Assembly: GCA_045644745.1 (NCBI GenBank)
Contig: JAZRHL010000020.1
Location: 2,998 to 66,997 of the forward strand
Length of the DNA: 64,000 nt
Source: Akkermansia sp.
GTDB taxonomy: Bacteria; Verrucomicrobiota; Verrucomicrobiia; Verrucomicrobiales; Akkermansiaceae
Direction: 5' to 3'
Both the position numbers and the translations under genes were made by a program. Under the pieces are notes generated by a model that saw nothing but the letters and a program-made list of their open reading frames with translations, searched no databases and was not told the DNA's origin. Positions 1,246 to 58,499 of the stretch are shown here, piece after piece. Within the stretch, counting starts at the first letter, position 1. Every line of letters begins with the position of its first letter.

Positions 1246-3645
1246 TTATGCTGCGGGTTCGCCATACACATAGATGCCGTTGGCGTGGAAGAACTCCGGA
1301 CCGCCGCCGCGGAGCACACGCACATAGAGTGCCTTCGGGCGTTCGCTCTGCAGGTCGAAGCGGTTGATGTAGTTGCCCGTGTTCTCGATAACGGGACCCA
1401 CATCATGCCAATCGTCATCGCGACCGGTATCGGACACCTGTACACGCAGGGGACGGAAACGGTGAATCAGCTTCCACTCATTCGTGCCGGCAAACACCAC
1501 ACCGGTGATGTATGCATGCTTCGGCAGCTTCACAGCAAGCCATGCATTCTTATCCTTGCCTGTGTGGAAGGTACCACCCTTCTGGGTGACGAGTCCGGAG
1601 TGCGTGTGCGGAGCATCCCATTCGCTCGTGGAGCTGCCGAAAGGCATGCCGCCGGCAGACACCAGCTTGCCGGGGAAGGGCGGGAACTCCGGAATGGCTG
1701 CGGTACCATGAATCTCCTTCGGGTCAATCATCTTGCTGATAGCGTGGAAGGTGGTGGCGTCACGAGATTTTTCTGCAGCCAGGATAAGACCGCCGAAGAG
1801 CTTGGCCTTCTGCGCGGAATTGAGCTTCTTGGCTGAGCTCAGGGACTTGATGGTGGCGTCAGAAAGTTTCTTGCGGCCCTCCTCGCTGAGGCTTTCGGAA
1901 ATCCTGTTACCCCAGGACAGCATCACGCCGGTATATGCATCGTGAGCGCCGGACTGGGTCATCGCACGCACAAACAGGTTGATGGCTACGTCTTCGGAGT
2001 TACCACCCAGCTTCTTGCATGCCTGCAGCTGAGCATCGGCAAACTTTTCCACATACCAGCGGTCCGGGCCCATGGTGGCAGCGCTCTTCCAGAACAGGGC
2101 GCAGGCCTCGGTGAGGTCATCGATGCTCATGCCGGAGTCAGCGAGGCTGTTGAGGATGCCCTGCTTGAGCAGCTCGGAAGCCTGCTCGGGGAAATCCTTG
2201 GCCATGCCCTTGCAGAGTCGGGAATTGAGCTTCTTCCAGGCTTCGGCGTTCTTGGGCATCTTCTCACCCAGGAATGCGGAGTAATCCTTCCACAGAAGGT
2301 AGTTGTAGGGAGCAGCCTTTGCGCCGTTCTCGTAGCAGTCCAGAGCCTTCTCGTTATTCTCCTTCTCGCGGAACACACTGGCAAGCGTGCGGTATGCATT
2401 GGAAAGGCGGGTCTTGGATTCAGACTTCTTCTCATACAGCGCATCCATCAGGTGCAGCGAGCTGTAGGTCCAGTTGTTGTTCCACGGATTCCAGTGCAGG
2501 CCACGTTCCCAGGTCAGCGAATAGGCAGGTGTCCATCTGCCGTTAATGAGCACGGCGTAGGCGCAGTGGCCGGGTTCACCCATGGTCAGGGCCGGCACAC
2601 CGTTGGCGCAGGCGCAGGCGGCACCGAAGTGCGACAGACCACCGCACACACCGCCCACGTTCTTGGTGAGAATCATGTGGTTATCTGTCCATACGCCTTC
2701 CCAGGGGGCGAAATAGTGGGCGCCATGAATGCTGTCGCCATACACGTTGTCGAGAATATACCCGCAGCGCCAGCAGCTGTCGGGGTACTGCCAATCCGGT
2801 ATATGCACATTGTTCAGAGCCCATTCGAAGGCCTTGACCGTGCCGCTGCGGTGGCCGGGCTTCCAGCCGCACGCGATGCGGCGGTGGTGGATAGCCAGCG
2901 AATCGAAGCTGGCATTCAGGCGGCCCTGGCGCCAGTACTTCAGGAAATACTGCGCACGCTCAATGGCATCCACCACCGGCATGTTGTTGCGGACGTATTC
3001 GAGCGCCACCGCGGTGGTGGTGTCGCGTGCCACGCCCTTCTTCAGTGCGCCCTTCTCGGCGTCGGCAATGGCGTTGATAATCTGCACCACGCGGGCAAAG
3101 GAGTGAATCTCACCCGAGAAGGCAATCTGCTCCATCCAGTCAGCATCGGCCAGAATAGACTTGAGCACATCCTCGTACTTGGAGTAGTTGATGGGGTACT
3201 TCGTCTCGGCCTGAAGTTTCTTCAGGGCAGCCTTGGCGCAGGAAAGGCGGTACTCGGCATTCTTCTTCTCCGGGCCTTTCTTATCCTTCACTTCCTTCTC
3301 AAGACGGCCGATTTCGTCCTTCTTGTTCTGCACATTCTGCCCGAGGTTGTTGTTGTGCTTCTTGTAATCCTCCTGGCGTGCGCAATCCAGGGAAACCAGG
3401 TGATACATGAGCAGAAGACGACGGTTTTCATCGCTCTTTATAAACTCCTGGATCGACTTGGTATCAACATTTTTTGCCCGCTTGGCAATCTCTGTTGCAA
3501 GCTTCTGGCGTAATTTATCCGGCGACTGCCAGGCTGAGGCCCCCGGCGTTGCCACTGCTGCCGGCTGAGACTGCTGCGCCTCTACCGGAAGCATGCCCCC
3601 GAACATTACGGCGGCCAGTGCTATGGAAAATAAGCTGATTTTCAT
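1246..3645 (-). CDS. Large secreted multidomain protein. Coiled-coil N-part, Cys/His-rich central core, discoidin (F5/8 type C)-like C-terminal domain
   Basis: 799-aa ORF with signal peptide MKISLFSIALAAVMFGGMLPVEA. C-terminal stretch (NAWLAVKLPKHAYITGVVFAG...RVQVSDTGRDDDWHDV...ALYVRVLR...IYVYG) follows the discoidin-domain pattern. The function call is tentative. Confidence 0.7.
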   Translation of the reverse strand: MKISLFSIALAAVMFGGMLPVEAQQSQPAAVATPGASAWQSPDKLRQKLATEIAKRAKNVDTKSIQEFIKSDENRRLLLMYHLVSLDCARQEDYKKHNNNLGQNVQNKKDEIGRLEKEVKDKKGPEKKNAEYRLSCAKAALKKLQAETKYPINYSKYEDVLKSILADADWMEQIAFSGEIHSFARVVQIINAIADAEKGALKKGVARDTTTAVALEYVRNNMPVVDAIERAQYFLKYWRQGRLNASFDSLAIHHRRIACGWKPGHRSGTVKAFEWALNNVHIPDWQYPDSCWRCGYILDNVYGDSIHGAHYFAPWEGVWTDNHMILTKNVGGVCGGLSHFGAACACANGVPALTMGEPGHCAYAVLINGRWTPAYSLTWERGLHWNPWNNNWTYSSLHLMDALYEKKSESKTRLSNAYRTLASVFREKENNEKALDCYENGAKAAPYNYLLWKDYSAFLGEKMPKNAEAWKKLNSRLCKGMAKDFPEQASELLKQGILNSLADSGMSIDDLTEACALFWKSAATMGPDRWYVEKFADAQLQACKKLGGNSEDVAINLFVRAMTQSGAHDAYTGVMLSWGNRISESLSEEGRKKLSDATIKSLSSAKKLNSAQKAKLFGGLILAAEKSRDATTFHAISKMIDPKEIHGTAAIPEFPPFPGKLVSAGGMPFGSSTSEWDAPHTHSGLVTQKGGTFHTGKDKNAWLAVKLPKHAYITGVVFAGTNEWKLIHRFRPLRVQVSDTGRDDDWHDVGPVIENTGNYINRFDLQSERPKALYVRVLRGGGPEFFHANGIYVYGEPAA

Positions 3646-3794
3646 AATAACGTAAGGTTGTTAGAGATTACCATTTTATTAGAGCGGACTCAAGTAAAAA
3701 AACTTGGGCGTAAGGCCTCTGATTCTGCGGGGAAAGACGAACCTCCTCGGAAGCTCTCCTTGGCGCGGGGTTCACGCCGGTGTACAACACAGGC

Positions 3795-4310
3795 ATGGGA
3801 TTTACAACTGCCGCCACGATACTGACCACTGCCGCCAGCGTTGCGGGCAAGGCCATGGAGGCCTCTGCCGAGCGCAAACAGGCCCGCGAATACAACGCTG
3901 CCGCCGAAGAACGCCGCCGCCTGGCCGAAAACCAGGCAGGCGCCATCACCCGCACCGCCATGGAAAACCGTAGGCGTGAGCAGCGGAATGCCCGCAGCCA
4001 GGTGGCTACGGCGCGGGCAGATGCCGCAGCCTCCAACCTTATGAGCAGCGGCACCGCCACCGTGCGCGAGACCGACCTCGCCACCCGCCTGGAGGACGAT
4101 ATCAACAACCGCACCAATGCCGCCCTGCAGGAGGCCAATACCCTCCGCAGCCAGGGCGCTTACGATGCGCACGACCTGGAGATGCATGCCCGCCAGTCCC
4201 GCCTGCGCAGCCAGGGAGCCTGGATTGGTGCTGCCGGCGGTATCTTCCGAGGTCTCAGCTCCGTGGCGGAGAACTCAGGCGGTTCAGGTAGTAATGCAGG
4301 GCCAGCTTGA
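3795..4310 (+). CDS. Hypothetical protein. Short hydrophobic N-terminus, long Ala/Arg/Glu/Asn coiled-coil, Gly-rich tail. Reminiscent of phage internal/pilot virion proteins
   Basis: ORF 3780..4310 in the track (GTG). First ATG at 3795 (MGFTTAATILTTAASVAG...). Composition is coherent for a real protein, unlike the two minus-strand shadow ORFs. No family identified by eye. Confidence 0.45.
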   Translation: MGFTTAATILTTAASVAGKAMEASAERKQAREYNAAAEERRRLAENQAGAITRTAMENRRREQRNARSQVATARADAAASNLMSSGTATVRETDLATRLEDDINNRTNAALQEANTLRSQGAYDAHDLEMHARQSRLRSQGAWIGAAGGIFRGLSSVAENSGGSGSNAGPA

Positions 4311-4473: not shown

Positions 4474-6975
4474 TTACTCCGGTCGCACAGAAATCCAGGT
4501 GCGGGTGGCCTGGGGATTCAGCACGGCGGCGAGGAAGCGGTTCATGCCTTCGGGGGTGACGGCGCGGAGGAGGTCAGGCACGCGGTCGTCGTAATCAGCG
4601 CCGAGGCCGAGGAGGGTGTTCACCGCCATGCCGGAGCAGCGCTTGCCGCAGCTCTGCAGGGCCAGCACGCGGCTGGTGAGGGCGGTGGAACGGGCTCGTT
4701 CCAGGGCATCAGCGGGCATACCTTCGGTGGCCAGTCGGTTGAGTGTTTCCTCGAGCACGGTGCGGGCTTCCTGCAGCTGCTCAGGGGCTGTGCCCAGGTA
4801 GAAGTAGAGGCAGCCTGCATCCACCCCCAGCAGGGATGAGGCGGCGGCATAATAGGCCAGACCCCGCTTCTCGCGGATTTCATCGAAGAGAGGGCCTGCC
4901 ATGTCGCGGCACCATTCCTCGAAAAGCAGCTGGGTGGGTGTGGAGTCGGAAAGGGCATTGGAGGCAGGCACGGCCACGGCGAGCACGGCCTGTTCCTTAT
5001 CCAGAATCTCCACAGCATCCGCAGGCATCTGGGCAGGGGTGTCGGTGCGCACGGCGGGTATGCCGGCGGGCATGCTGCCGAAGAGTTTTTCTGCCTGCTC
5101 CAGCACGGCGGCGGGGTCGATATCGCCCGCGACGGCCAGCACGGCATTCTGCGCGCAGACCAGGCGGGCGTGCTGCGCCAGCAGGGCCTCGCGGGTGAAG
5201 CTCTGCACGCTTTCCACATAGCCATCTCGGTGGTTGCCATAGGAAACAGGGCCGAAGCACAGGCGGCGCAGTCGGCGGAAGGCGAGGGCGGCGGGGTCCT
5301 CCTCGGCATCCATGATATCGGCAATCATGGCGTGTTTCTCATTTTCCACCGTTTCAGCGGGCAGGGTGGGGTACAGCGTGGCATCTGCCAGCAGGCCGAG
5401 CAGGGCAGGCAGGTCTGCTGCCAGGCCGCGGATGGAGAGGTTGAAGGTGTTGTTGCCGGCGGCGCTGGAAATCGAGCCTCCCAGGTTTTCCACCTCGCTG
5501 GCCAGTTGTTCGGCGCTGCGGGTGGTGGTGCCCTTGAGCATGCACTCAGTGAGCAGGGAATTGATGCCGGCGGTCTCGGCGGTTTCGGTCTGGCTGCCTG
5601 CGCCGAACACGATTTCGGCATAGGCCATGGGCACGCGCTTATCCACTCGGGTGACCACGCGCAGACCGTTGGGCAGGGTATGCACCACGGGGGCATTGGT
5701 ATCGGCAGCACTGCTGGCGGCATCGGCATCGGTATTGCTGCCGGTGGGGTCCACGCTCACTTCCACCAGACGGTCGGGGGTAAAGTAAGTGGCAGCGGCG
5801 GTGGCGATATCCTTGTTGCGCACATGGGAGAGGGCCGCATCCCATTCCTCCATGCTGTTCGGGTTGCGGCTCAGGTGCCAGGACATGCCCAGCACATTGG
5901 CCACGCCCTGCACGGTGGAAAGCCCGCGCAGACGCCCCGTGAGCATCTGGCGGCGGGTGCGGCGTCGCGCTTCATCGAAATCTGCCTGCGGCAGGGTGGC
6001 CATGAATTCCAGCACGGCGTCGCGCAGGGTGTCGCGCTTGTCGCGATCCACATCGAACTCCAGCACCAGGGCGCCTTCTCCCGTGCGGTCGGGCACGGGC
6101 ATGACGGATACATCGTGCGCGAGCCCCAGCTCATCGTGGAACTTCTTGTACAACCACGCCGAGCGGCCATCGCCCAGAATGGAGCCAAGCATGGAAATGG
6201 CGGCGGCATCCGGGTGGTTGGAGGACGGGGTGCGCCAGGCCAGCATGAGGGTGCTGGTGGGCTGGGCAAACTCGCAGCGGTGGGTGCGCGGCCCCCACTG
6301 GCGGGGCTCGGCGGCAGGTGTGGCCTGCCTGGCCGGGCGGGCAGGCACGCTGCCGAACTCTGCTTCCACGGCTTCGAAGAGCTCCTGCGGGTTCACATCG
6401 CCCGCTACGCACAGGAACATGTTGCCCGGCACATAGCGGTCGCGGTGGTAGGCCACCATGTCCTCGTAGCTCAGGGCATCGAACCCGCTGCGGGTGCCGA
6501 TGACCGGCTGGCGGCGAGGGGCCACCTTGAACAGCGTGCGGATGAGCGCGTGGTAGGCGGTGTCCTGCGGGTCGTCATTGTACATGCCCATTTCGCGGCG
6601 GATGACATCGCGCTCGCGTTCCCATTCATCGCGGGGGAAGGCGGGGTGCAGGGTGAGCTGGCTGAGCAGGTGCAGGAACTCGCGCCAGTGGGCGGCGGGG
6701 CCGTCGATGTAGAACACGGTGCGGTCGGTGCTGGTGTAGGCATTCCACATGCCGCCCAGTTCGGGCACACGCTCGTTGAGCTGGCGGGCGTTCAGTTCCG
6801 CGGTCCCCTTGAATACCATGTGCTCCAGCAGGTGCGAAAGCCCTGCGCCCAGGTGCTCGCCCTCGTGAATGGAGCCGGTTTCAATCCAGACTTGGAGCGA
6901 AACCAGCGGAAAGGCGTTCTGCGGAGCCACTACTGTGGTAAAACCATTGGAACAAACGTGAACCTCGTGCTGCAT
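4474..6975 (-). CDS. M16 (pitrilysin/insulinase) family zinc peptidase, duplicated two-unit architecture
   Basis: Inverted zincin motif HLLEHMVFKGT near the N-terminus. There is a second M16-like half. Start moved to ATG 6975 (MQHEVHVCSNGF...) because a -35/-10 promoter sits just upstream. The track ORF extends to 7257. Confidence 0.9.
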   Translation of the reverse strand: MQHEVHVCSNGFTTVVAPQNAFPLVSLQVWIETGSIHEGEHLGAGLSHLLEHMVFKGTAELNARQLNERVPELGGMWNAYTSTDRTVFYIDGPAAHWREFLHLLSQLTLHPAFPRDEWERERDVIRREMGMYNDDPQDTAYHALIRTLFKVAPRRQPVIGTRSGFDALSYEDMVAYHRDRYVPGNMFLCVAGDVNPQELFEAVEAEFGSVPARPARQATPAAEPRQWGPRTHRCEFAQPTSTLMLAWRTPSSNHPDAAAISMLGSILGDGRSAWLYKKFHDELGLAHDVSVMPVPDRTGEGALVLEFDVDRDKRDTLRDAVLEFMATLPQADFDEARRRTRRQMLTGRLRGLSTVQGVANVLGMSWHLSRNPNSMEEWDAALSHVRNKDIATAAATYFTPDRLVEVSVDPTGSNTDADAASSAADTNAPVVHTLPNGLRVVTRVDKRVPMAYAEIVFGAGSQTETAETAGINSLLTECMLKGTTTRSAEQLASEVENLGGSISSAAGNNTFNLSIRGLAADLPALLGLLADATLYPTLPAETVENEKHAMIADIMDAEEDPAALAFRRLRRLCFGPVSYGNHRDGYVESVQSFTREALLAQHARLVCAQNAVLAVAGDIDPAAVLEQAEKLFGSMPAGIPAVRTDTPAQMPADAVEILDKEQAVLAVAVPASNALSDSTPTQLLFEEWCRDMAGPLFDEIREKRGLAYYAAASSLLGVDAGCLYFYLGTAPEQLQEARTVLEETLNRLATEGMPADALERARSTALTSRVLALQSCGKRCSGMAVNTLLGLGADYDDRVPDLLRAVTPEGMNRFLAAVLNPQATRTWISVRPE

Positions 6976-7407: not shown

Positions 7408-7428
7408 AGTATCGCAAAAAATCCCGAC

Positions 7429-7456
7429 TATTCACTATTCCTTATTCACTATTCAC
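7429..7456 (+). repeat. Tandem heptamer array TATTCAC TATTCCT TATTCAC TATTCAC
   Basis: Read directly. It occupies the -35 region upstream of the TGtTAGAAT -10 (7465..7473) of the AEC transporter gene. Confidence 0.85.
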
Positions 7457-7473
7457 TCCAACTATGTTAGAAT
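7445..7473 (+). promoter_or_regulatory. Putative promoter for the AEC transporter: TTCACT-17-TAGAAT with TGn extension, 15 nt before ATG
   Basis: TGtTAGAAT at 7465..7473. The -35-like TTCACT lies inside the heptamer array. Confidence 0.5.
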
Positions 7474-7488: not shown

Positions 7489-8481
7489 ATGTTTGACCTT
7501 GTTCTCAATTCATTCTTTGCCTCTATTCCGGTATTCATCTTTTTCGGAATCGGTTTCTGGCTGCGGTACAAGAAGGCTATTGCCCCGGAGCACGACAGTG
7601 TGATTCTGCAGCTGGCCATGGATGTGGGCTACCCCTGCCTGATTTTCCACAGCATCATGAAATACATGGTGGTAGAGGCGAATCCCGTGATGAGTACCTT
7701 CGGCTTTTCTCTGCAAGGTATCCTCTGCGGCTTCCTGGAGCTGCTGGTCGGTGTGCTGGCGGCCTATGCTGTGGCCTGGGTGCTGCGCCTGAAGATTGGC
7801 ACGGGGCTGCGCACCTTCACGCTCACCGCGGGTGTGCAGAACTATGTGTTCTTCGTGGTGCCCATCATCCAGATGCTCTTTTCTGCCCCCGGCGACCCCA
7901 CGCTGGGTGTACTCTTCATCCACAACATGGGCTGCGAAATCTTCATCTGGAGCCTGGGGGTCATCCTCATGTGTGGCGGGGTGAAGGACCTGCGCATCGG
8001 CATGCTGCTGCGCGGCCCGCTGCTGGCTGTTATCGTTTCGCTCATCATTGCCTGGGTAGGGCTGGGCGAATATGTGGCGCTGCCGCCCATCATGAAAGCG
8101 GCAGAGATGATAGGCGCGGTGTCCACGCCCATCTGCCTGATTATCTTCGGTTGCTCGCTGTATGACCTGACCCGCAACTTCGTGTGGCAGCCGCGCATGC
8201 TGGCTGCGGGCGTGATTACGCGCCTCCTGATTGCGCCGGCGCTCATCCTGCTGCTGGCCTGGGTGCTGCCGGTGGATCCTCTGCTCAAGCGCATCATGGT
8301 GATTCAGAGCGCCATTCCCAGCGCGGTGATTCCCGTGATTCTGGCAAAGCGCTTCGGCGGCCGACCGGATGTGGGTGCTCAGGTGCTGCTGGCTACCACG
8401 CTCTGTTCCTTTGTGACCCTGCCGTTCTGGCTGGCCATGGGTAGCAAGTACGTGGTGCCGCTGCTCGGCACGACTCCGTAA
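7489..8481 (+). CDS. AEC (auxin efflux carrier) family permease
   Basis: 330-aa polytopic membrane protein. The N-terminus MFDLVLNSFFASIPVFIFFGIGFWLRYKK and overall pattern are typical of AEC transporters. Confidence 0.8.
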   Translation: MFDLVLNSFFASIPVFIFFGIGFWLRYKKAIAPEHDSVILQLAMDVGYPCLIFHSIMKYMVVEANPVMSTFGFSLQGILCGFLELLVGVLAAYAVAWVLRLKIGTGLRTFTLTAGVQNYVFFVVPIIQMLFSAPGDPTLGVLFIHNMGCEIFIWSLGVILMCGGVKDLRIGMLLRGPLLAVIVSLIIAWVGLGEYVALPPIMKAAEMIGAVSTPICLIIFGCSLYDLTRNFVWQPRMLAAGVITRLLIAPALILLLAWVLPVDPLLKRIMVIQSAIPSAVIPVILAKRFGGRPDVGAQVLLATTLCSFVTLPFWLAMGSKYVVPLLGTTP

Positions 8482-11064: not shown

Positions 11065-12473
<1,409 letters not shown>

Positions 12474-12477
<4 letters not shown>

Positions 12478-12519
12478 CGATTGACAATTGACGATTGACA
12501 ATTGACGATTGACAATTGG
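12474..12519 (+). repeat. Tandem heptamer array (TTGACGA TTGACAA) x3 plus TTGG. Left arm of an inverted repeat
   Basis: Read directly. The array starts on the ahcY stop codon (tTGA) and ends 1 nt before the four-helix-bundle ATG. Confidence 0.95.
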
Positions 12520-12520
12520 T

Positions 12521-12907
12521 ATGGATGCGCGGGAATTGCGAGAACGGACACTTGAGTTCGGGCTGCGTATCGTTCGTCTGTGTCAATATCTGCAGGGACA
12601 TCCTGTGGCCGAGGTGCTGGGCAAGCAGTTGCTGCGATGCGGCACCTCGGTCGGGGCTAATTACCGGGCTGCTAGTCTGGCCAAGAGTTCTGCGGATTTC
12701 GTCTCGAAAATCAAGATATGCGAGGAAGAAGCAGATGAATCCATCTATTGGCTGGAGCTGCTGATGCGTTCTGGTGAGGTGGATGCCGCTCGCCTGAAGC
12801 CCCTGCAGGATGAGGCTGCAGAATTGCGCAATATCATGTCCGCTAGTGCTATCACAGCTCGTAAGAACTTAAAACAAGAGAAACATAAATCCACCAATGG
12901 TCAATAG
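12521..12907 (+). CDS. Four-helix-bundle protein (23S rRNA intervening-sequence protein / Avd family, TIGR02436/PF05635-like)
   Basis: MDARELRERTLEFGLRIV...GKQLLRCGTSVGANYRAA...ADFVSKIKICEEEADESIYWLELL matches the family signature (xSxGANIxEA ... ES.YWLxL). The track start 12509 is a TTG inside the repeat. Confidence 0.85.
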   Translation: MDARELRERTLEFGLRIVRLCQYLQGHPVAEVLGKQLLRCGTSVGANYRAASLAKSSADFVSKIKICEEEADESIYWLELLMRSGEVDAARLKPLQDEAAELRNIMSASAITARKNLKQEKHKSTNGQ

Positions 12908-12928
12908 TCAATTGTCATTAGTCAATGC
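12894..12928 (+). repeat. Inverted copy of the heptamer array (GTCAATA GTCAATT GTCATTA GTCAATG). Right arm
   Basis: The reverse complement of 12894..12926 matches 12487..12519 at 29 of 33 positions (aligned by hand). It contains the four-helix-bundle stop (12905..12907) and the folC ATG (12897). Confidence 0.9.
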
Positions 12929-14114
12929 CCTTGATTGGTTATACTCGACGCAGGCTTTCGGCATCAAGCTGGGGCTGGAGGGAGTGACCCGTCTGCTTTC
13001 GGCCTGCGGTGTGCTGTATCCCCGGGCGCAGGTCATTCACGTGGCCGGCACGAATGGCAAGGGCAGCACCTGCGCTTTCTGCGAGAGTGTGGCTCGCGCT
13101 GCCGGGTACAAGACAGGCTTGTTCACGTCGCCGCATCTGGTGGAGTTCAGTGAGCGTATCCGCGTGAACGGGGTGAATATCCCGGATGCGGATGCCGCAC
13201 GCCTGATTGCCAAGGTGCGCGAGCTGGTGCAGAGCTGGGACCCGTGCCCGACTTTCTTTGAACTGGTGCTGGCCGTGGCCATGCTCTGGTTTGCTGAGCA
13301 GGAGGTGGAGCTCATTGTGCTCGAAACCGGCATGGGCGGCCGACTGGATGCCACCAATGCCGTGCCCAAGGACGTGGCTGTGCTTGCCCCCATAGGACTC
13401 GACCACACCCAGTATCTGGGCGAAACGCTTTACGAGGTGGCAGGTGAGAAAGCCGCCATTCTTTCCTGGCACCGCCCGGCGGTGTGTGCTCCGCAGGAGC
13501 CGGAAGCCATGCGGGCTATTCATGAGGCAGCACAGCACATGGATACCTACTGCCGCGTGATTACAACCGAATGCGCCCAGCCGCTGGGGCTGAAGGGCGA
13601 ACACCAGCGCCGCAATGCTGCGCTGGCCCTCGCTGCTCTGCGCGCCCTGCCGCATTTCCTCTGCAGCGCCGAGGAAGAAGCCCGCGGCCTGGCTCAGGTA
13701 AGCTGGCCGGGACGTTTCGAGGAAGTGCAGCCCGGTGTCATCATGGACGGCGCGCATAACCCGCACGCCATGCAGGTGCTTACCCGCACCTGGCGCGAGG
13801 CCTTCGGAGAGCAGAAAGCCCGCTGCATCTATGCCGGCTCGGCAGACAAGGCACTGGATGAGGTGCTGGAGCTGCTTGCCCCCATCGTAGGTGAGTGGGT
13901 GCTGCCCCCGGTGCAGTCTCCCCGTATCCTTCCCCCCGCCGAAATGGCAGCCAAGGTGCAGGCGGTGTCGGCTGCTCCCGTTTCCACTCCCGACACGCTG
14001 GCCGAATGCCTGGCCGATATGCCCGCCGGCACCCTCATCTGCGGTTCTTTCTTCCTCCTCGGCGAGGCTAAGGCTGTTCTTCGGAGCGCTGATTACCGCA
14101 GTACGGTGCAGTGA
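12897..14114 (+). CDS. folC: Bifunctional folylpolyglutamate synthase / dihydrofolate synthase
   Basis: ALDWLYSTQAFGIKLGLEGV..., P-loop HVAGTNGKGST, Mur-ligase fold pattern. The only in-frame start is ATG 12897, inside the repeat. Confidence 0.9.
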   Translation: MVNSQLSLVNALDWLYSTQAFGIKLGLEGVTRLLSACGVLYPRAQVIHVAGTNGKGSTCAFCESVARAAGYKTGLFTSPHLVEFSERIRVNGVNIPDADAARLIAKVRELVQSWDPCPTFFELVLAVAMLWFAEQEVELIVLETGMGGRLDATNAVPKDVAVLAPIGLDHTQYLGETLYEVAGEKAAILSWHRPAVCAPQEPEAMRAIHEAAQHMDTYCRVITTECAQPLGLKGEHQRRNAALALAALRALPHFLCSAEEEARGLAQVSWPGRFEEVQPGVIMDGAHNPHAMQVLTRTWREAFGEQKARCIYAGSADKALDEVLELLAPIVGEWVLPPVQSPRILPPAEMAAKVQAVSAAPVSTPDTLAECLADMPAGTLICGSFFLLGEAKAVLRSADYRSTVQ

Positions 14115-14202
14115 TTTCACTTTTCACATGCGCGCAGCGCATGTTTTCATTTTTCATACGAACGCGCAGCGTGAGTTTTCATGAAAAAAAGCTGCGAGCA
14201 TG
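14115..14202. repeat. Mosaic of TTTTCA(C/T) motifs and short GC hairpins with a palindromic centre TTTTCATGAAAA (14176..14187). The first hairpin plus T-run is the likely folC terminator
   Basis: CATGCGC-gca-GCGCATG (14127..14143) is followed by TTTTCATTTTT. The motif orientation flips at 14176..14187. Confidence 0.75.
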
Positions 14203-14272
14203 AAATGAAAACGCCCGCATTCGCAGGCGTGTGAAAAATGAAGGGTGAAAACGCGCCTTGTGGCGCGTGAGA
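14203..14272. repeat. 70-bp direct repeat, copy 1 (two hairpins, each followed on the minus strand by TTTTCA)
   Basis: AAATGAAAACGCCCGCATTCGCAGGCGTGTGAAAAATGAAGGGTGAAAACGCGCCTTGTGGCGCGTGAGA. It differs from copy 2 at 4 of 70 positions (hand alignment). Confidence 0.9.
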
Positions 14273-14277
14273 AAACA

Positions 14278-14622
14278 TCAAGCATTATCTTTTGCTGTTT
14301 TGATGGAGCGAATCAACATGAATCTGATTCGTCGGCAAGTATTCAGTAGTGTTTCGGCTTTATCCGGCTCCAATGTCTGAGTATTTGCCATCAGTTCAAG
14401 CCAGTATTCGCTTTCATTGCTTTCTTTGAGAGCAATTTGTAATTTGGCGATGAAATCGGCTCGGCTGCTGGCGTATTGTGCTTCGCGGATGTTCGCTCCG
14501 ATACTTGTAGATGACCGGAGTAACTGGTTTTTGAGTACTCCTCGTTTTTCTACCGTATCATGAGTAAGAACAGTCGCTATCGCGAAGTTCATGGATTCCG
14601 TCATTAACTGATTCTCAGACAC
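14278..14622 (-). CDS. Four-helix-bundle protein (23S rRNA IVS protein / Avd family), second diverged copy
   Basis: ...LKNQLLRSSTSIGANIREAQYASSRADFIAKLQIALKESNESEYWLELM, the same signature as 12521..12907. The start is uncertain: GTG 14622 lies 7 nt after TCGACA-17-TACAAT, and ATG 14604 is the alternative. Confidence 0.85.
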   Translation of the reverse strand: MSENQLMTESMNFAIATVLTHDTVEKRGVLKNQLLRSSTSIGANIREAQYASSRADFIAKLQIALKESNESEYWLELMANTQTLEPDKAETLLNTCRRIRFMLIRSIKTAKDNA

Positions 14623-14679
14623 AATCTTGATTGTAACGGATTGAGATGATGATGTCGATGTAAAAATGAGAATAAAAGA

Positions 14680-14749
14680 AAATGAAAACGCCCGCTTTCG
14701 CGGGCGTGTGAAAAATGAAGGATGAAAACGCGCCTTGCGGCGCGTGAGA
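14680..14749. repeat. 70-bp direct repeat, copy 2. Doubles as the rubrerythrin terminator module
   Basis: AAATGAAAACGCCCGCTTTCGCGGGCGTGTGAAAAATGAAGGATGAAAACGCGCCTTGCGGCGCGTGAGA. It ends 2 nt from the rbr stop codon. The period between copies is 477 bp. Confidence 0.9.
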
Positions 14750-14751
14750 CC

Positions 14752-15294
14752 TTAGATCTCGATGTACTTGGCCTTGGGGAAGTTGCAGAGCGGGCAGCGT
14801 TCCGGCTCGGTGCCTTCGGCAAAGGTGTCGCCGCAGAGCGGGCACACGTAGTACTTGGAGGGCAGGTCGAGCTTCTCGCCGGCTTCGAGCTGGGCAAGAG
14901 CCTTGCTGTACAGGTCGGCGTGTTCCTTCTCGGCCTCGTTGGCCCAGGTGAAGCTGCGCACGGCGTCGGAGATTTCCTCCTCCTGAGCCTTGGCAATCAT
15001 GGGGGGATACATCTCGGTGAACTCGTAGGTCTCGCCGGCGATGGCGGCCTTCAGGTTCTCAATAGTGTTGCCCACCTCGATGTGCATCTCGATATCGATG
15101 GGAGCCTGACCCAGTTTCACGAGCACTTTGTTGTGGTTGGTGGCGTGAATGCGCTCGGCGCGGCTGGCGGCGGCAAAGAGCTTTTCGATGAGCGGGTAAC
15201 CCTCCTGGGCTGCGCGGGTGGCGTAGGCAGCGTACTTGGCGCTGGCGGTGCTTTCGCCGATGATGGCGGTCTTGAGATTGTCGATTGTTGTCAT
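14752..15294 (-). CDS. rbr: Rubrerythrin family protein
   Basis: Ferritin-like diiron N-domain (E..H motifs: SRAERIHATNH, ETYEFTEMYP) plus a C-terminal rubredoxin-like CPLCG...CPLC. Confidence 0.9.
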   Translation of the reverse strand: MTTIDNLKTAIIGESTASAKYAAYATRAAQEGYPLIEKLFAAASRAERIHATNHNKVLVKLGQAPIDIEMHIEVGNTIENLKAAIAGETYEFTEMYPPMIAKAQEEEISDAVRSFTWANEAEKEHADLYSKALAQLEAGEKLDLPSKYYVCPLCGDTFAEGTEPERCPLCNFPKAKYIEI

Positions 15295-56426: not shown

Positions 56427-58499
56427 TTATTCCTTGTCGCGGCTCTTGTAGGAATCGCGCATCTGGGCGTCCTTCACAGCGTTGTTGCGGGCCTTTTCCT
56501 TGGCCTGCTCGGCGGCGAACTTGATGTCTTCGTCCTTGTCGGACACGAAGCGGTCAAGCAGGGCAATCACCCAGTCATGGTCGTGCAGGGTGGAAAGCAC
56601 CGTGATAAGCTGCTTCTTCTGGCCTCGCTGCTTTTCGAGGGTCTTGAGCTGTTCCTGAAGTTTGGGCAAATCCGGGTGGTCATCACCGATGTAGAGCGTG
56701 GACATGGAGTCCGTCTTGTTGATGATGTCCTGAATGCCGGAGGTGTCAGCGAAGGGCTCATCGAAGTAGAGAGCAAGGAGTTTGTCAGCTGTTTCAACAG
56801 AGCGCTCGCGGTTCTGGGCGAGGATGGTGCCGATGACGGAGTTGATGCGGTCCTGAATCTTGGCGTCATCCTTGTTGGCCTCCTTCTGTTCGAGCACGAA
56901 GTCGAGGATGTCATCGTTACCCCAGGCGCCGATGAATACGGAGGGCGCGCCCTTCCATTTTTCGGATTCAAGCTGGCTCTTGTAGAACTCCAGAGCCTTG
57001 GGTGAGCAGGCGCGGGCAAGAGAGGTGACAATGGAGGTGTTCTTGCGAAGTTTCTCCGGGATGCCGGTGAAGATGTCGTCGCCCAGCTTGGCCTTGGCAT
57101 CGGCATCATCCATCATGGAAAGAATGTTATCCAGACAGATGCAGAGGTTGCCGGCAAGCTTGTTGTCGGTGATGTCGGACTTGAGCAGAGCAATGATTTC
57201 CGGCGCATCTGCAGGAGAAACACGCAGACCGATGCATTCCCAGATGGAGGCGAGCACCGTGCTCTTCTGCATCCAGGGCTTGGCGGTCTTCTTGTCCTGT
57301 ACCACCTGAGCCAGCTTCTTGAGGCTGGCGTTCACGCCCTTTGCGTTGGAAATGGCGATGCGCTGCAGCAGCCAGGTGAACAGCGTGGGCTTGATCTTGT
57401 TGCAGTTCTTGCCCAGGGAATCGAAAATCATGTCGCGGATGGCTTCATCCTTTTCTGCGGCCAGACCCAGCAGCAGACAGGCGTTCTGAGCCACACCCTC
57501 TGCACGGGCGCCGTAGCGGGGCTTACCGTTCTCTCCCTTCACAAAGGGATCGATAACCACCTCCATGAGAGCCTTGGCATCTGCCATGGTGCAGGTTACA
57601 TCCACATTCTTCTTGGCGGCATCGGCCAGGTTTTCCACGGCCTTCATGTTGATTTCCTGGGCGCGCTTGAGCAGGGAGTTCGTGTAGTCAATGTGAGCCT
57701 GGATACGGGCGTTCTCAGCCTGCTTCTGTACCACCATGGTGGTGCAGACGCCGATAGTCACAACCAGAGCAGCAGCGCCACCGATGAAGAGCTTGTTCTT
57801 CCAGATGGGGACTTGCTGGCTTTCCTCTGCGAGAGCCTGCATGTAGGCTTCACGCTGGGCGGCCTCATCATCGCTCATGTCTGTGCTGCTCTTGGATGCT
57901 GTTGCGGCGGGCTTTTTCTTTTTCTTTGCACCGGCCACGGAGATGTTACTCTTGGGCTTGCTACCCTTGGCGGCGCGAAGCTTTTCGGTAGGCGTGGGTG
58001 CATCGGGAGCCTCTTCTTCCACCATGGTCTGAGCTGCAGCCGCGGCTTCAGTAGCGTCATCGGCTGCTGCGGTAGCAGCTGCCTGTTCCTCTGCGGCCTG
58101 CAATGCGGCCATCTGGCGGTTATACTCCTCCATCTGGCGGTTGTACTCCTCCATCTGGCGCTCGTATTCTTCCTGTGCTTGGCGGGCAGCTTCTGCTTCT
58201 GCGGCAGCCTGAGCCTCGGCTGCTGCCTTGGCTTCGGCTTCAGCCTGTGCTGCTGCAGCGATGGCGGCTTCATCTACCTGCGGTTCAGCTGCGGGTGCAG
58301 GGGTGGGTGCAGGAGTAGTGGTCTTAGGATTCTTGGGTGCAGCTGTCTTAGGTTCTGCGGGCGCAGCGGTCTTGGGGGTAATCGTCTTGCCGGTGGCGCT
58401 CTTGAGAGTCACTTGCTTGGCAGGGGCGGTGCCGGAGGGGCGCAGCAGACGAGCCGGAGTCGCCGGTGCGCTGGCGGTTTTCAGTTTCGGAGTAGCCAT
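56427..58499 (-). CDS. Membrane-anchored protein: Ala/Pro/Glu/Lys-rich disordered N-region, one TM, large helical-repeat C-domain
   Basis: 690-aa ORF. Low-complexity N-terminus with a tandem EY(E/N)RQM(E/A) x3 repeat. TM LFIGGAAALVVTIGVCTTMVV. The C-terminal ~430 aa are helical (HEAT/ARM-like impression only). Confidence 0.7.
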   Translation of the reverse strand: MATPKLKTASAPATPARLLRPSGTAPAKQVTLKSATGKTITPKTAAPAEPKTAAPKNPKTTTPAPTPAPAAEPQVDEAAIAAAAQAEAEAKAAAEAQAAAEAEAARQAQEEYERQMEEYNRQMEEYNRQMAALQAAEEQAAATAAADDATEAAAAAQTMVEEEAPDAPTPTEKLRAAKGSKPKSNISVAGAKKKKKPAATASKSSTDMSDDEAAQREAYMQALAEESQQVPIWKNKLFIGGAAALVVTIGVCTTMVVQKQAENARIQAHIDYTNSLLKRAQEINMKAVENLADAAKKNVDVTCTMADAKALMEVVIDPFVKGENGKPRYGARAEGVAQNACLLLGLAAEKDEAIRDMIFDSLGKNCNKIKPTLFTWLLQRIAISNAKGVNASLKKLAQVVQDKKTAKPWMQKSTVLASIWECIGLRVSPADAPEIIALLKSDITDNKLAGNLCICLDNILSMMDDADAKAKLGDDIFTGIPEKLRKNTSIVTSLARACSPKALEFYKSQLESEKWKGAPSVFIGAWGNDDILDFVLEQKEANKDDAKIQDRINSVIGTILAQNRERSVETADKLLALYFDEPFADTSGIQDIINKTDSMSTLYIGDDHPDLPKLQEQLKTLEKQRGQKKQLITVLSTLHDHDWVIALLDRFVSDKDEDIKFAAEQAKEKARNNAVKDAQMRDSYKSRDKE
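58110..58172. repeat. 21-bp tandem repeat x3 inside the CDS (CATCTGGCGGTTATACTCCTC and variants)
   Basis: Read directly. Encodes the EY(E/N)RQM(E/A) peptide repeat on the minus strand. Confidence 0.9.

Follow-up and report, generated by a model that had tools for sequence, protein, structure and literature searches.

An intervening-sequence-like cassette with a four-helix-bundle gene at the ahcY-folC junction of Akkermansia, and inverted heptamer arrays around related genes in other bacterial phyla

Intervening sequences (IVSs) of bacterial rRNA are known both as short forms that lack an open reading frame (ORF) and as long, ORF-bearing forms (Salmonella, Leptospira). The ORF-containing IVSs of 23S rRNA (e.g., those of Leptospira, Coxiella burnetii, Brucella and Haemophilus) hold a gene of the PF05635 or 'S23p' family of four-helix-bundle (4HB) proteins in the loop of a long stem, with tandem heptamers of strain-variable copy number directly 5′ of its ATG; they ride on the host transcript without a promoter of their own and are regarded as selfish insertions (PMC4990558). 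The Coxiella burnetii 23S IVS, for example, is closed by a 28-bp terminal inverted-repeat stem. Immediately 5′ of the S23p ATG, it has three or four GACAGAT heptamers, with two or three copies according to strain; RNase III cleavage at the first repeat was shown in vitro and by rapid amplification of cDNA ends (RACE). The Coxiella ORF is reported to be decaying and probably untranslated (PMC4990558). Here we describe a 64-kb stretch of Akkermansia sp. DNA (contig JAZRHL010000020.1; hereafter the window, with 1-based coordinates), in which a 4HB gene enclosed by inverted arrays of heptamers lies at the junction between ahcY and folC. Comparative evidence supports reading this unit as an IVS-like cassette, with RNase III processing at this locus being a prediction from the analogy.

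Two long-standing puzzles meet at this locus. The 4HB family is found in most bacterial phyla, and since 1993 no function has been assigned to it, Avd, a distant relative, being the exception. Heptameric tandem repeats, for their part, have been recognized as over-represented in bacteria since 2007, and the short tandemly repeated repetitive (STRR) sequences of cyanobacteria since 1990, with no accepted explanation for either (PMC4692102). In Xanthomonas campestris, there are 186 GGGAATC arrays, including 70 convergent pairs, and Nostoc has comparable GGGGATT arrays (Rehm et al., PMC4692102); the authors of that study read the arrays as G-quadruplex motifs and remarked that heptameric repeats want a detailed literature (PMC4692102).

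The cassette starts on the stop codon of ahcY (S-adenosyl-L-homocysteine hydrolase; 11065..12477, + strand; 470 aa; Pfam PF05221, E = 2e-147), a gene that is called likewise in orthologous loci. The left (5′) array (12474..12519, + strand) reads (TTGACGA TTGACAA) x3 followed by a partial TTGG, i.e., 6.6 units, with the ahcY TGA (12475-12477) falling within unit 1. An initial annotation of the window had these heptamers run to 1 nt before the ATG of the 4HB gene; the array and its overlap with the TGA stand, whereas the six full units (12474-12515) stop 5 nt short of that ATG and it is the partial seventh unit, ending at 12519, that comes within 1 nt, being followed by a single T and the ATG at 12521. 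The 4HB gene itself (12521..12907, + strand; 128 aa), whose identity as a PF05635/TIGR02436 member is backed by profile and structure evidence, ends within the right (3′) inverted array (12894..12927, + strand), which consists of CCAATG and four GTCAATN-type units at 12900-12927 (GTCAATA GTCAATT GTCATTA GTCAATG), so that the claim of an inverted array over the end and stop of this gene (TAG, 12905-12907) is correct. The right array also carries the start of folC (folylpolyglutamate synthase/dihydrofolate synthase; 12897..14114, + strand; Pfam Mur_ligase_M and Mur_ligase_C) together with its codons 1-10: the folC ATG lies at 12897-12899 and the array-encoded N-terminus is MVNSQLSLVNA. This ATG had been called the only possible folC start; one other in-frame candidate exists upstream of the conserved LDWLY motif, namely TTG at 12912, and it is likewise within the array. 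From the folC start codon to the 4HB stop codon, the two genes overlap by 11 nt (ATGGTCAATAG; 12897..12907, + strand), as read from the sequence, and this overlap is likely a site of translational coupling.

Both arrays are detected by Tandem Repeats Finder with periods of 7 and 14 (scores 92 for the left array and 52 for the right). The two-unit pattern TTGACRATTGACRA, with up to two mismatches, matches 10 times in the window against an expectation of 1.0; eight of these matches fall within the two arrays, and none of 100 shuffles gave 10. The pairing of the arms, initially aligned by hand at 29 of 33 positions, is real and can be refined to 34 nt with 88% complementarity (12487..12520 and 12893..12926, + strand); these arms are paired in both the minimum free energy (MFE) and the centroid folds and leave between them a loop of 372 nt, which is almost exactly the 4HB ORF. 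Computed folding of 12465-12935 agrees with the proposed stem, the MFE structure pairing the left with the right array at −176 kcal/mol, against −149 ± 6 kcal/mol for shuffles (z = −4.5), and with an inter-arm duplex energy of −49.5 kcal/mol. An E-value scan of 12300-14900 with Rfam returned no match on the cassette and no rRNA, in keeping with its position between ahcY and folC and not in a 23S rRNA gene (helix 25 or 45).

The assignment of the protein is firm: it scores above the curated cut-offs of both PF05635 (E = 4e-15; 56.3 bits against a cut-off of 33.8) and TIGR02436 (E = 4e-21; 75.4 bits against 24), and it is matched by phmmer to PDB 2RLD (E = 2e-21). Its AlphaFold2 model (predicted local distance difference test, pLDDT, 95) has four helices (residues 3-23, 28-52, 57-83 and 89-126), and Foldseek aligns it with 2RLD (BT_0352; TM-scores 0.80/0.91) and 2GSC (XCC0516; 0.75/0.81), crystal entries that each contain 5 chains, and with Avd (4DWL, 8UB7; 0.64-0.75 at 17-19% identity). 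PF05635-type relatives are abundant (at least 7991 at E <= 1e-5 among 8000 scored candidates), and just 6 were found among 2.9 million viral contigs; with PADLOC and PHROGs also giving no match, we rejected a defense-system or phage identity for this protein.

Orthologous loci identify the cassette as an insertion that is evidently old enough for domestication. It occupies the same ahcY-folC junction in loci L001 and L003-L007, with 4HB proteins 76-99% identical to that of the window; the closest is from L007, an uncultured Akkermansia metagenome-assembled genome (MAG; 99%). The close relative L087, with a folC 91% identical, has an empty site in which the ahcY TGA is followed by 14 nt (ttccggaaaatatc) and then by the folC ATG, with the native N-terminus MSTLQEELDWLY (MSTLQEE-LDWLY). 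In L089 and L092, the ORF has been lost and a remnant of ~115 nt is left with decaying arrays, while the folC N-termini (MPSSQSSIAN... and MAHHPASIAD...) are still visibly array-derived. The empty site and the remnants thus bear out the insertion proposed in the initial annotation, though not its placement exactly between stop and start: relative to L087, 35 nt of native sequence have been replaced, namely the 14-nt spacer plus the ~7 opening codons of folC. More distant relatives (folC <=78% identical) have a short native folC N-terminus of the form M-x-x-Y-x-x-A-LDWLY; ahcY is not adjacent to folC in P0235, the sole type looked up among them, and they therefore yield no further empty sites. 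The best explanation of this distribution is that the cassette was acquired at the junction in one sub-lineage of Akkermansia-like bacteria. In another relative, L088, the place of the cassette between ahcY and folC is taken by a 459-aa SLFN/AlbA_2 + HATPase_c_4 gene (1043-2422); this junction seems to be a hot spot for the entry of foreign DNA.

The 4HB gene has a dN/dS of 0.03-0.10, similar to that of folC, and such purifying selection implies that its protein matters to something. Among orthologs, the left array varies in length (2.6-6.6 units), whereas the right array has 4 units in every one of them, with the folC N-terminus always extending 11 residues before LDWLY; since the right array encodes part of folC, where a change by one 7-nt unit would break the reading frame, its length is fixed. 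The distance from the 4HB stop to the folC start is −11, −1 or +4 nt. The stem, which is predicted to cover the folC start as initially proposed, persists in each of the 7 orthologous cassettes (−29 to −50 kcal/mol), although these differ in unit number and sequence; the arms stay complementary through rapid turnover of the units. Synonymous divergence (dS) between the window and L003 is 1.7 for the cassette gene (12521-12904; L003 3001-3354) as against 0.58 for folC and 0.33 for ahcY, a 3-5-fold excess over the flanking genes, whereas the corresponding values against L001 agree with one another (0.49, 0.48 and 0.31); the L003 allele is also shorter, with 118 aa vs 128 aa in the window. This contrast suggests an exchange of cassette alleles without a change of site.

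The build of this cassette matches that of the ORF-containing 23S IVSs, e.g., that of Coxiella (PMC4990558), as had been claimed, with some differences. Unlike the rRNA elements, the Akkermansia cassette lies between two protein-coding genes and not in helix 25/45; its arms overlap a stop and a start codon, and cleavage would destroy the folC message; and strong purifying selection acts on its ORF, in contrast to the reportedly decaying ORF of Coxiella. Locally, then, the case is one of an rRNA-type intervening element in an mRNA junction, one arm of which has been co-opted as the start of an essential gene.

We surveyed the wider family with one genome per species, which gave 80 loci with 91 homologous genes, and used 108 other ORFs of the same loci as controls. 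The loci come from about ten phyla (Verrucomicrobiota, Planctomycetota, Acidobacteriota, Chloroflexota, Cyanobacteria, Bacteroidota, Ignavibacteria, delta-proteobacteria, Nitrospirales and others). Period-7/8 arrays were found upstream of 60% of the 4HB genes (5.6% of control ORFs), downstream of 81% (8.3%) and on both sides of 53% (1.9%), and 69% of the 4HB genes have complementary flanks at a local score of at least 14 (0.9% of controls). The summed pairing of flanks from the same locus is 1541, against 685 ± 30 with flanks swapped between loci, and the left and right consensus units are reverse complements (<=1 mismatch) in 40/49 loci, compared to 8.9 after permutation. The unit itself varies by locus, e.g., GATTGCG, GATTTAC, GATTTCG, GATTGAC, GATTTTA, GAATGCA and GGATGTC, among others, with both sides matching; GATT occurs in 62% of the consensus units, as against 2.7% expected for a random heptamer, usually in the form GATT[GT]NN, which the window unit fits when rotated as GATTGAC. 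Downstream arrays usually begin at or just past the stop codon, at a median distance of 8 nt, and upstream arrays stop short of the 4HB start by a median of 38 nt; the median gaps to same-strand neighbors are 79 nt upstream and 40 nt downstream. Arrays are 12 times as dense near 4HB genes as elsewhere in the same 80 loci. In L099, a gene with 63% identity is accompanied by a TTGACAA-type unit at an unrelated site, which indicates that gene and arrays travel together. This family-wide tie of 4HB genes to heptamer arrays appears to be undescribed, the open full-text literature holding no general link between the two that we could find, and it is the more interesting result: it offers a testable link by which most 4HB-family genes sit inside a hairpin of inverted heptamer arrays, with the same build as the rRNA IVSs that RNase III cuts.

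The arrays of the cassette also resemble the heptameric simple sequence repeats described in Xanthomonas, Nostoc and the cyanobacterial STRR literature. Both comprise 7-nt tandem units with an AATC/GATT core, are mostly intergenic and close to gene ends, vary strongly in length among close relatives and are frequently found as convergent inverted pairs; the cassette arrays have at least two tandem 7-nt units, hug the ends of genes in an intergenic setting, are variable in length and converge on each other. A direct point of contact is array #15 of Xanthomonas, which overlaps the start codon of XCC0516 (supplement of PMC4692102), the very 4HB protein of PDB 2GSC; PMC4692102 draws no connection between heptamer arrays and the 4HB family. 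The G-quadruplex reading advanced there does not transfer to the window arrays and was rejected for them, given that TTGACRA, like most related units and unlike the Xanthomonas and Nostoc repeats, lacks G-tracts. In locus L065 (Microcoleus; 1900-4300), AGATTTT/AAAATCT arrays of alternating orientation occupy successive spacers, bracketing a 4HB gene, a gene for a 332-aa membrane protein and an acpS-like gene (a name read from the translation), and look like classical cyanobacterial STRR repeats.

We consider it probable, without being certain, that these elements are hairpin cassettes of the IVS type that act in mRNA and form a phylum-spanning class, with the transcript stem being the seat of ribosome competition and coupling and, at this locus, of adoption by folC; of that class, only the ORF-containing 23S rRNA IVSs would then have been studied to date. 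Having no convincing promoter of its own, the cassette would be transcribed within an ahcY-4HB-folC message, in which the arrays would pair into a stem of ~34-45 bp, a long duplex of the sort on which RNase III acts in the rRNA elements; the stem length does suit an RNase III substrate. In rRNA the stem meets no opposition and the element is removed by RNase III. Here, as the arms overlap stop and start codons, ribosomes would compete with the stem: ahcY would terminate on the first heptamer, and the 4HB frame crosses the loop and has its stop inside the 3′ arm, 11 nt beyond the ATG of folC, so that its translation would open that arm and pass ribosomes on to folC by termination-reinitiation coupling. 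A transcript left untranslated would fold, hide the folC start and become a potential RNase III target. For its start codon and its codons 1-10, folC has come to use the 3′ arm, whose length is thereby frozen at 4 units, whereas the 5′ arm, being non-coding, slips freely between 2 and 6. With the start codon and the first ten codons of an essential gene coming from an array, folC makes a clean natural system for studying the interplay of hairpin, ribosome and RNase III.

Several observations weigh against this reading. A cut anywhere in the stem would sever the folC ATG (12897, at the loop-proximal end of the 3′ arm) from the body of the gene and remove the 4HB stop. Accordingly, a transcript that is to yield the product of an essential gene cannot ordinarily undergo excision in the manner of rRNA, and the stem is more likely to act as a gate, or to mark untranslated message for quality control and decay, than to serve in excision. 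A further difficulty emerges when the association is approached from the side of the arrays, by searching at least four TTGACNA units as a DNA pattern in metagenome contigs. A 4HB gene (A1-type) lies within 150 nt on the predicted side of just 6/99 such arrays (other side, 1/108), where a majority was expected, which forces an asymmetric reading of the co-occurrence suggested in the initial annotation: it holds for the genes, 53% of which are flanked on both sides, and fails for the arrays, most of which have no 4HB neighbor. An inverse array is found within 1 kb on the predicted side in 22/85 cases (other side, 5/87), and of these 22, 19 are at 6-110 nt, forming ORF-less hairpins, and 3 at 410-534 nt, an ORF-sized distance; within the 80 loci, too, arrays adjoin ordinary genes and form ORF-less pairs. 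This 4HB-less majority means that arrays have a life of their own that the model does not explain. Moreover, the GATT core goes beyond what base pairing alone demands and hints at a sequence-specific partner or shared ancestry; together with the gene-less arrays, it keeps a DNA-level or protein-binding role in play. The second cassette of the window, described below, is flanked by direct repeats and not simply by inverted ones. Finally, the co-orientation of 4HB genes with their neighbors (84%, i.e., 67/80 loci, for the upstream neighbor, and 72% downstream) is only modestly above the bacterial norm.

The alternatives to an RNA hairpin place the function of the arrays elsewhere. If the cassette were a DNA-level mobile element, which we hold to be possible though unlikely, the inverted arrays would be terminal repeats recognized by the 4HB protein or a host enzyme, the 4HB unit being 'autonomous', the ORF-less pairs and solo arrays its non-autonomous offspring, and RNA pairing a by-product. 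The presence/absence polymorphism of both window cassettes among close relatives, the related gene with its TTGACAA-type unit at the unrelated site in L099, the tandem cassette duplications in L033 and L021, the conserved GATT core and the 3-5-fold elevated dS of the cassette against L003 are all congenial to such an element, as is the frequency of ORF-less convergent pairs, both around TTGACNA arrays (19/85 at 6-110 nt on the gene side vs 5/87 on the other) and in Xanthomonas (70 pairs among 186 arrays; PMC4692102). By the usual criteria for transposable elements and miniature inverted-repeat transposable elements (MITEs), the cassette does have terminal inverted repeats, though their unit differs from locus to locus, where a shared enzyme would be expected to hold its recognition site constant. 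Further, the comparison of the filled window site with the empty site of L087 shows no target-site duplication; the cassette encodes no transposase or recombinase, the 4HB gene being its sole ORF; the fold is that of Avd-type accessory proteins and not that of any known nuclease or recombinase; and near-identical copies at different sites were not seen in the 64 kb of this genome that were searched, the two copies within the window being just 33% identical. Alternatively, the arrays could be RNA or DNA operators of a pentameric 4HB protein, making the cassette autoregulated, with array length tuning the expression of the 4HB gene and folC. Avd proteins are basic and bind nucleic acids. That Avd, a relative in fold, acts in a ribonucleoprotein complex (PDB 8UB7 being among the structural matches) agrees with this doubtful proposal, and so do the conservation of the GATT[GT]NN core across phyla, the variation of the left array from 2.6 to 6.6 units among close relatives and the decay of the arrays after ORF loss (L089, L092), although the last is equally expected of a dead selfish element. 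Sequence-specific binding is, however, known for no family member, the conserved motifs of the protein stay constant while the unit sequence changes, and most arrays have no such gene nearby.

That the heptamers are stacked −35 boxes (TTGACA), serving as promoters for the 4HB gene and folC, was part of the initial annotation and is now highly improbable. TTGACA/TTGACG is indeed present in the unit, and there are two weak sigma-70-like matches, at 12474 and 12488, with 9/12 positions and a −10 of GACAAT; yet related units are unlike −35 boxes (GATTGCG, GATTTAC, GATTTTA, GAATGCA, GGATGTC), the same unit is inverted on the other side of the gene, and the 4 matches over 3 kb compare with 1.2 ± 1.1 expected for a sigma-70-like consensus that may not be that of Akkermansia. 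With matches at only 9/12 and the related units so different, we rejected the promoter reading. As for chance similarity or an assembly artifact, the likelihood is negligible: an artifact has nothing in its favor except that short-read assemblies generally handle tandem repeats poorly, the structure recurs at this site in 7 or more independent assemblies and at ~90 loci elsewhere, and chance is excluded by the shuffle statistics for pattern count and fold energy. Both are refuted by these shuffles, the orthologous loci and the comparison of family and control flanks.

Going beyond the hairpin cassette that we favor, one may speculate that PF05635 genes and inverted GATT-core heptamer arrays constitute a single unrecognized, phylum-spanning element, in which the 4HB protein creates, maintains or spreads the arrays by way of hairpin RNA or DNA. 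We think this improbable; were it true, the rRNA IVSs would simply be those elements that happened to insert into rRNA, the action of the 4HB protein would resemble that of Avd in the retroelement ribonucleoprotein, and the excess of heptameric repeats in bacteria, the cyanobacterial STRR and the Xanthomonas GGGAATC arrays would be explained together. The nearest architectural parallel is that of repetitive extragenic palindromic (REP) sequences and their hairpin-forming doublets (REPINs) with the REP-associated tyrosine transposases (RAYTs), where a single-copy gene is likewise flanked by inverted short repeats that are far commoner elsewhere as solo copies and hairpin-forming pairs. The analogy is architectural only: RAYTs are Y1 transposases of known chemistry, whereas the 4HB protein has no catalytic motif, and REPs are single palindromic units and not tandem heptamer arrays.

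Avd, which shares fold and superfamily with the 4HB protein (4DWL, 8UB7), belongs to the diversity-generating retroelements (DGRs), and PF05635 is the commonest family beside DGR reverse transcriptases (PMC10053308). A DGR context was rejected for the cassette in the absence of a nearby reverse transcriptase: neither a reverse transcriptase nor template/variable repeats lie near the cassette, whose neighbors are ahcY, folC and rubrerythrin, no reverse transcriptase family is among the called genes of L001, L003, L006 and L087, and heptamer arrays are not a described feature of DGRs. An integron cassette was considered and set aside for want of an attC-like single site and an integrase. The array was also considered as a three-frame translational stop, an idea we dropped; the window unit contains TGA/TAG, but the commonest units elsewhere (GATTGCG) are stop-free. 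A screen for CRISPR association counts '23S rRNA IVP' among the families linked to CRISPR arrays (PMC10910872); it is pure speculation on our part that this link is a repeat-detection artifact caused by the flanking tandem arrays.

The second cassette of the window lies in the folC-rubrerythrin spacer, in a region of 39-46% GC, and contains a PF05635 gene on the minus strand (14278..14622; 114 aa; PF05635 E = 2e-22, 79.8 bits; TIGR02436 89.6 bits), whose product is 33% identical to the first 4HB protein and looks unrelated to it. It is flanked by two copies of a 70-nt direct repeat (14203..14272 and 14680..14749, + strand; 94% identical), each with GTGAAAA/ATGAAGG (TGAAAAN) heptamer-like units and two GC hairpins, and an outer partner (14114..14166, + strand; TTTCAC TTTTCAC ... 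GTTTTCA TTTTTCA, a TTTTCAY block) is inverted relative to 14680-14749; the inverted pairs here (I1-I4) are 18-25 nt long and 76-86% complementary. L087 has this cassette too, with direct repeats of 80 nt or more, but it is absent in L003, whose empty site (4579-4819) has an inverted TTTTCAT x3/ATGAAAR x3 pair ~75 nt apart with no ORF between, evidently an ORF-less hairpin of the second cassette's unit type. The 70-nt repeats are far longer than a typical target-site duplication, and such long direct repeats suggest integration by recombination or local duplication. The Rfam motif Gut-1 (RF01706), an orphan from human gut metagenomes, matches 14203-14278 and 14680-14755 across its whole model length, but below threshold (20 and 26 bits, the gathering score being 50); the repeats may be diverged relatives of it.

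Tandem 4HB cassettes with heptamer arrays between them occur in L033 (1998-2750; 2 copies) and L021 (1995-3520; 4 copies), an arrangement that recombination between arrays would produce. Elsewhere in the window, Tandem Repeats Finder reports a cluster of longer repeats at 58109-58373 (21-nt x3, 18-nt x2.4 and 24-nt x2.2). A solo array of ACTATTC x4.4 (rotation ATTCACT) lies at 7427-7457, 30 nt upstream of an ORF that starts at 7489, and lacks an inverted partner in its vicinity. Its unit recurs on both sides of a 4HB gene in L009, an Akkermansia MAG, as AGTGAAT upstream and as ATTCACT in at least 8 units downstream.

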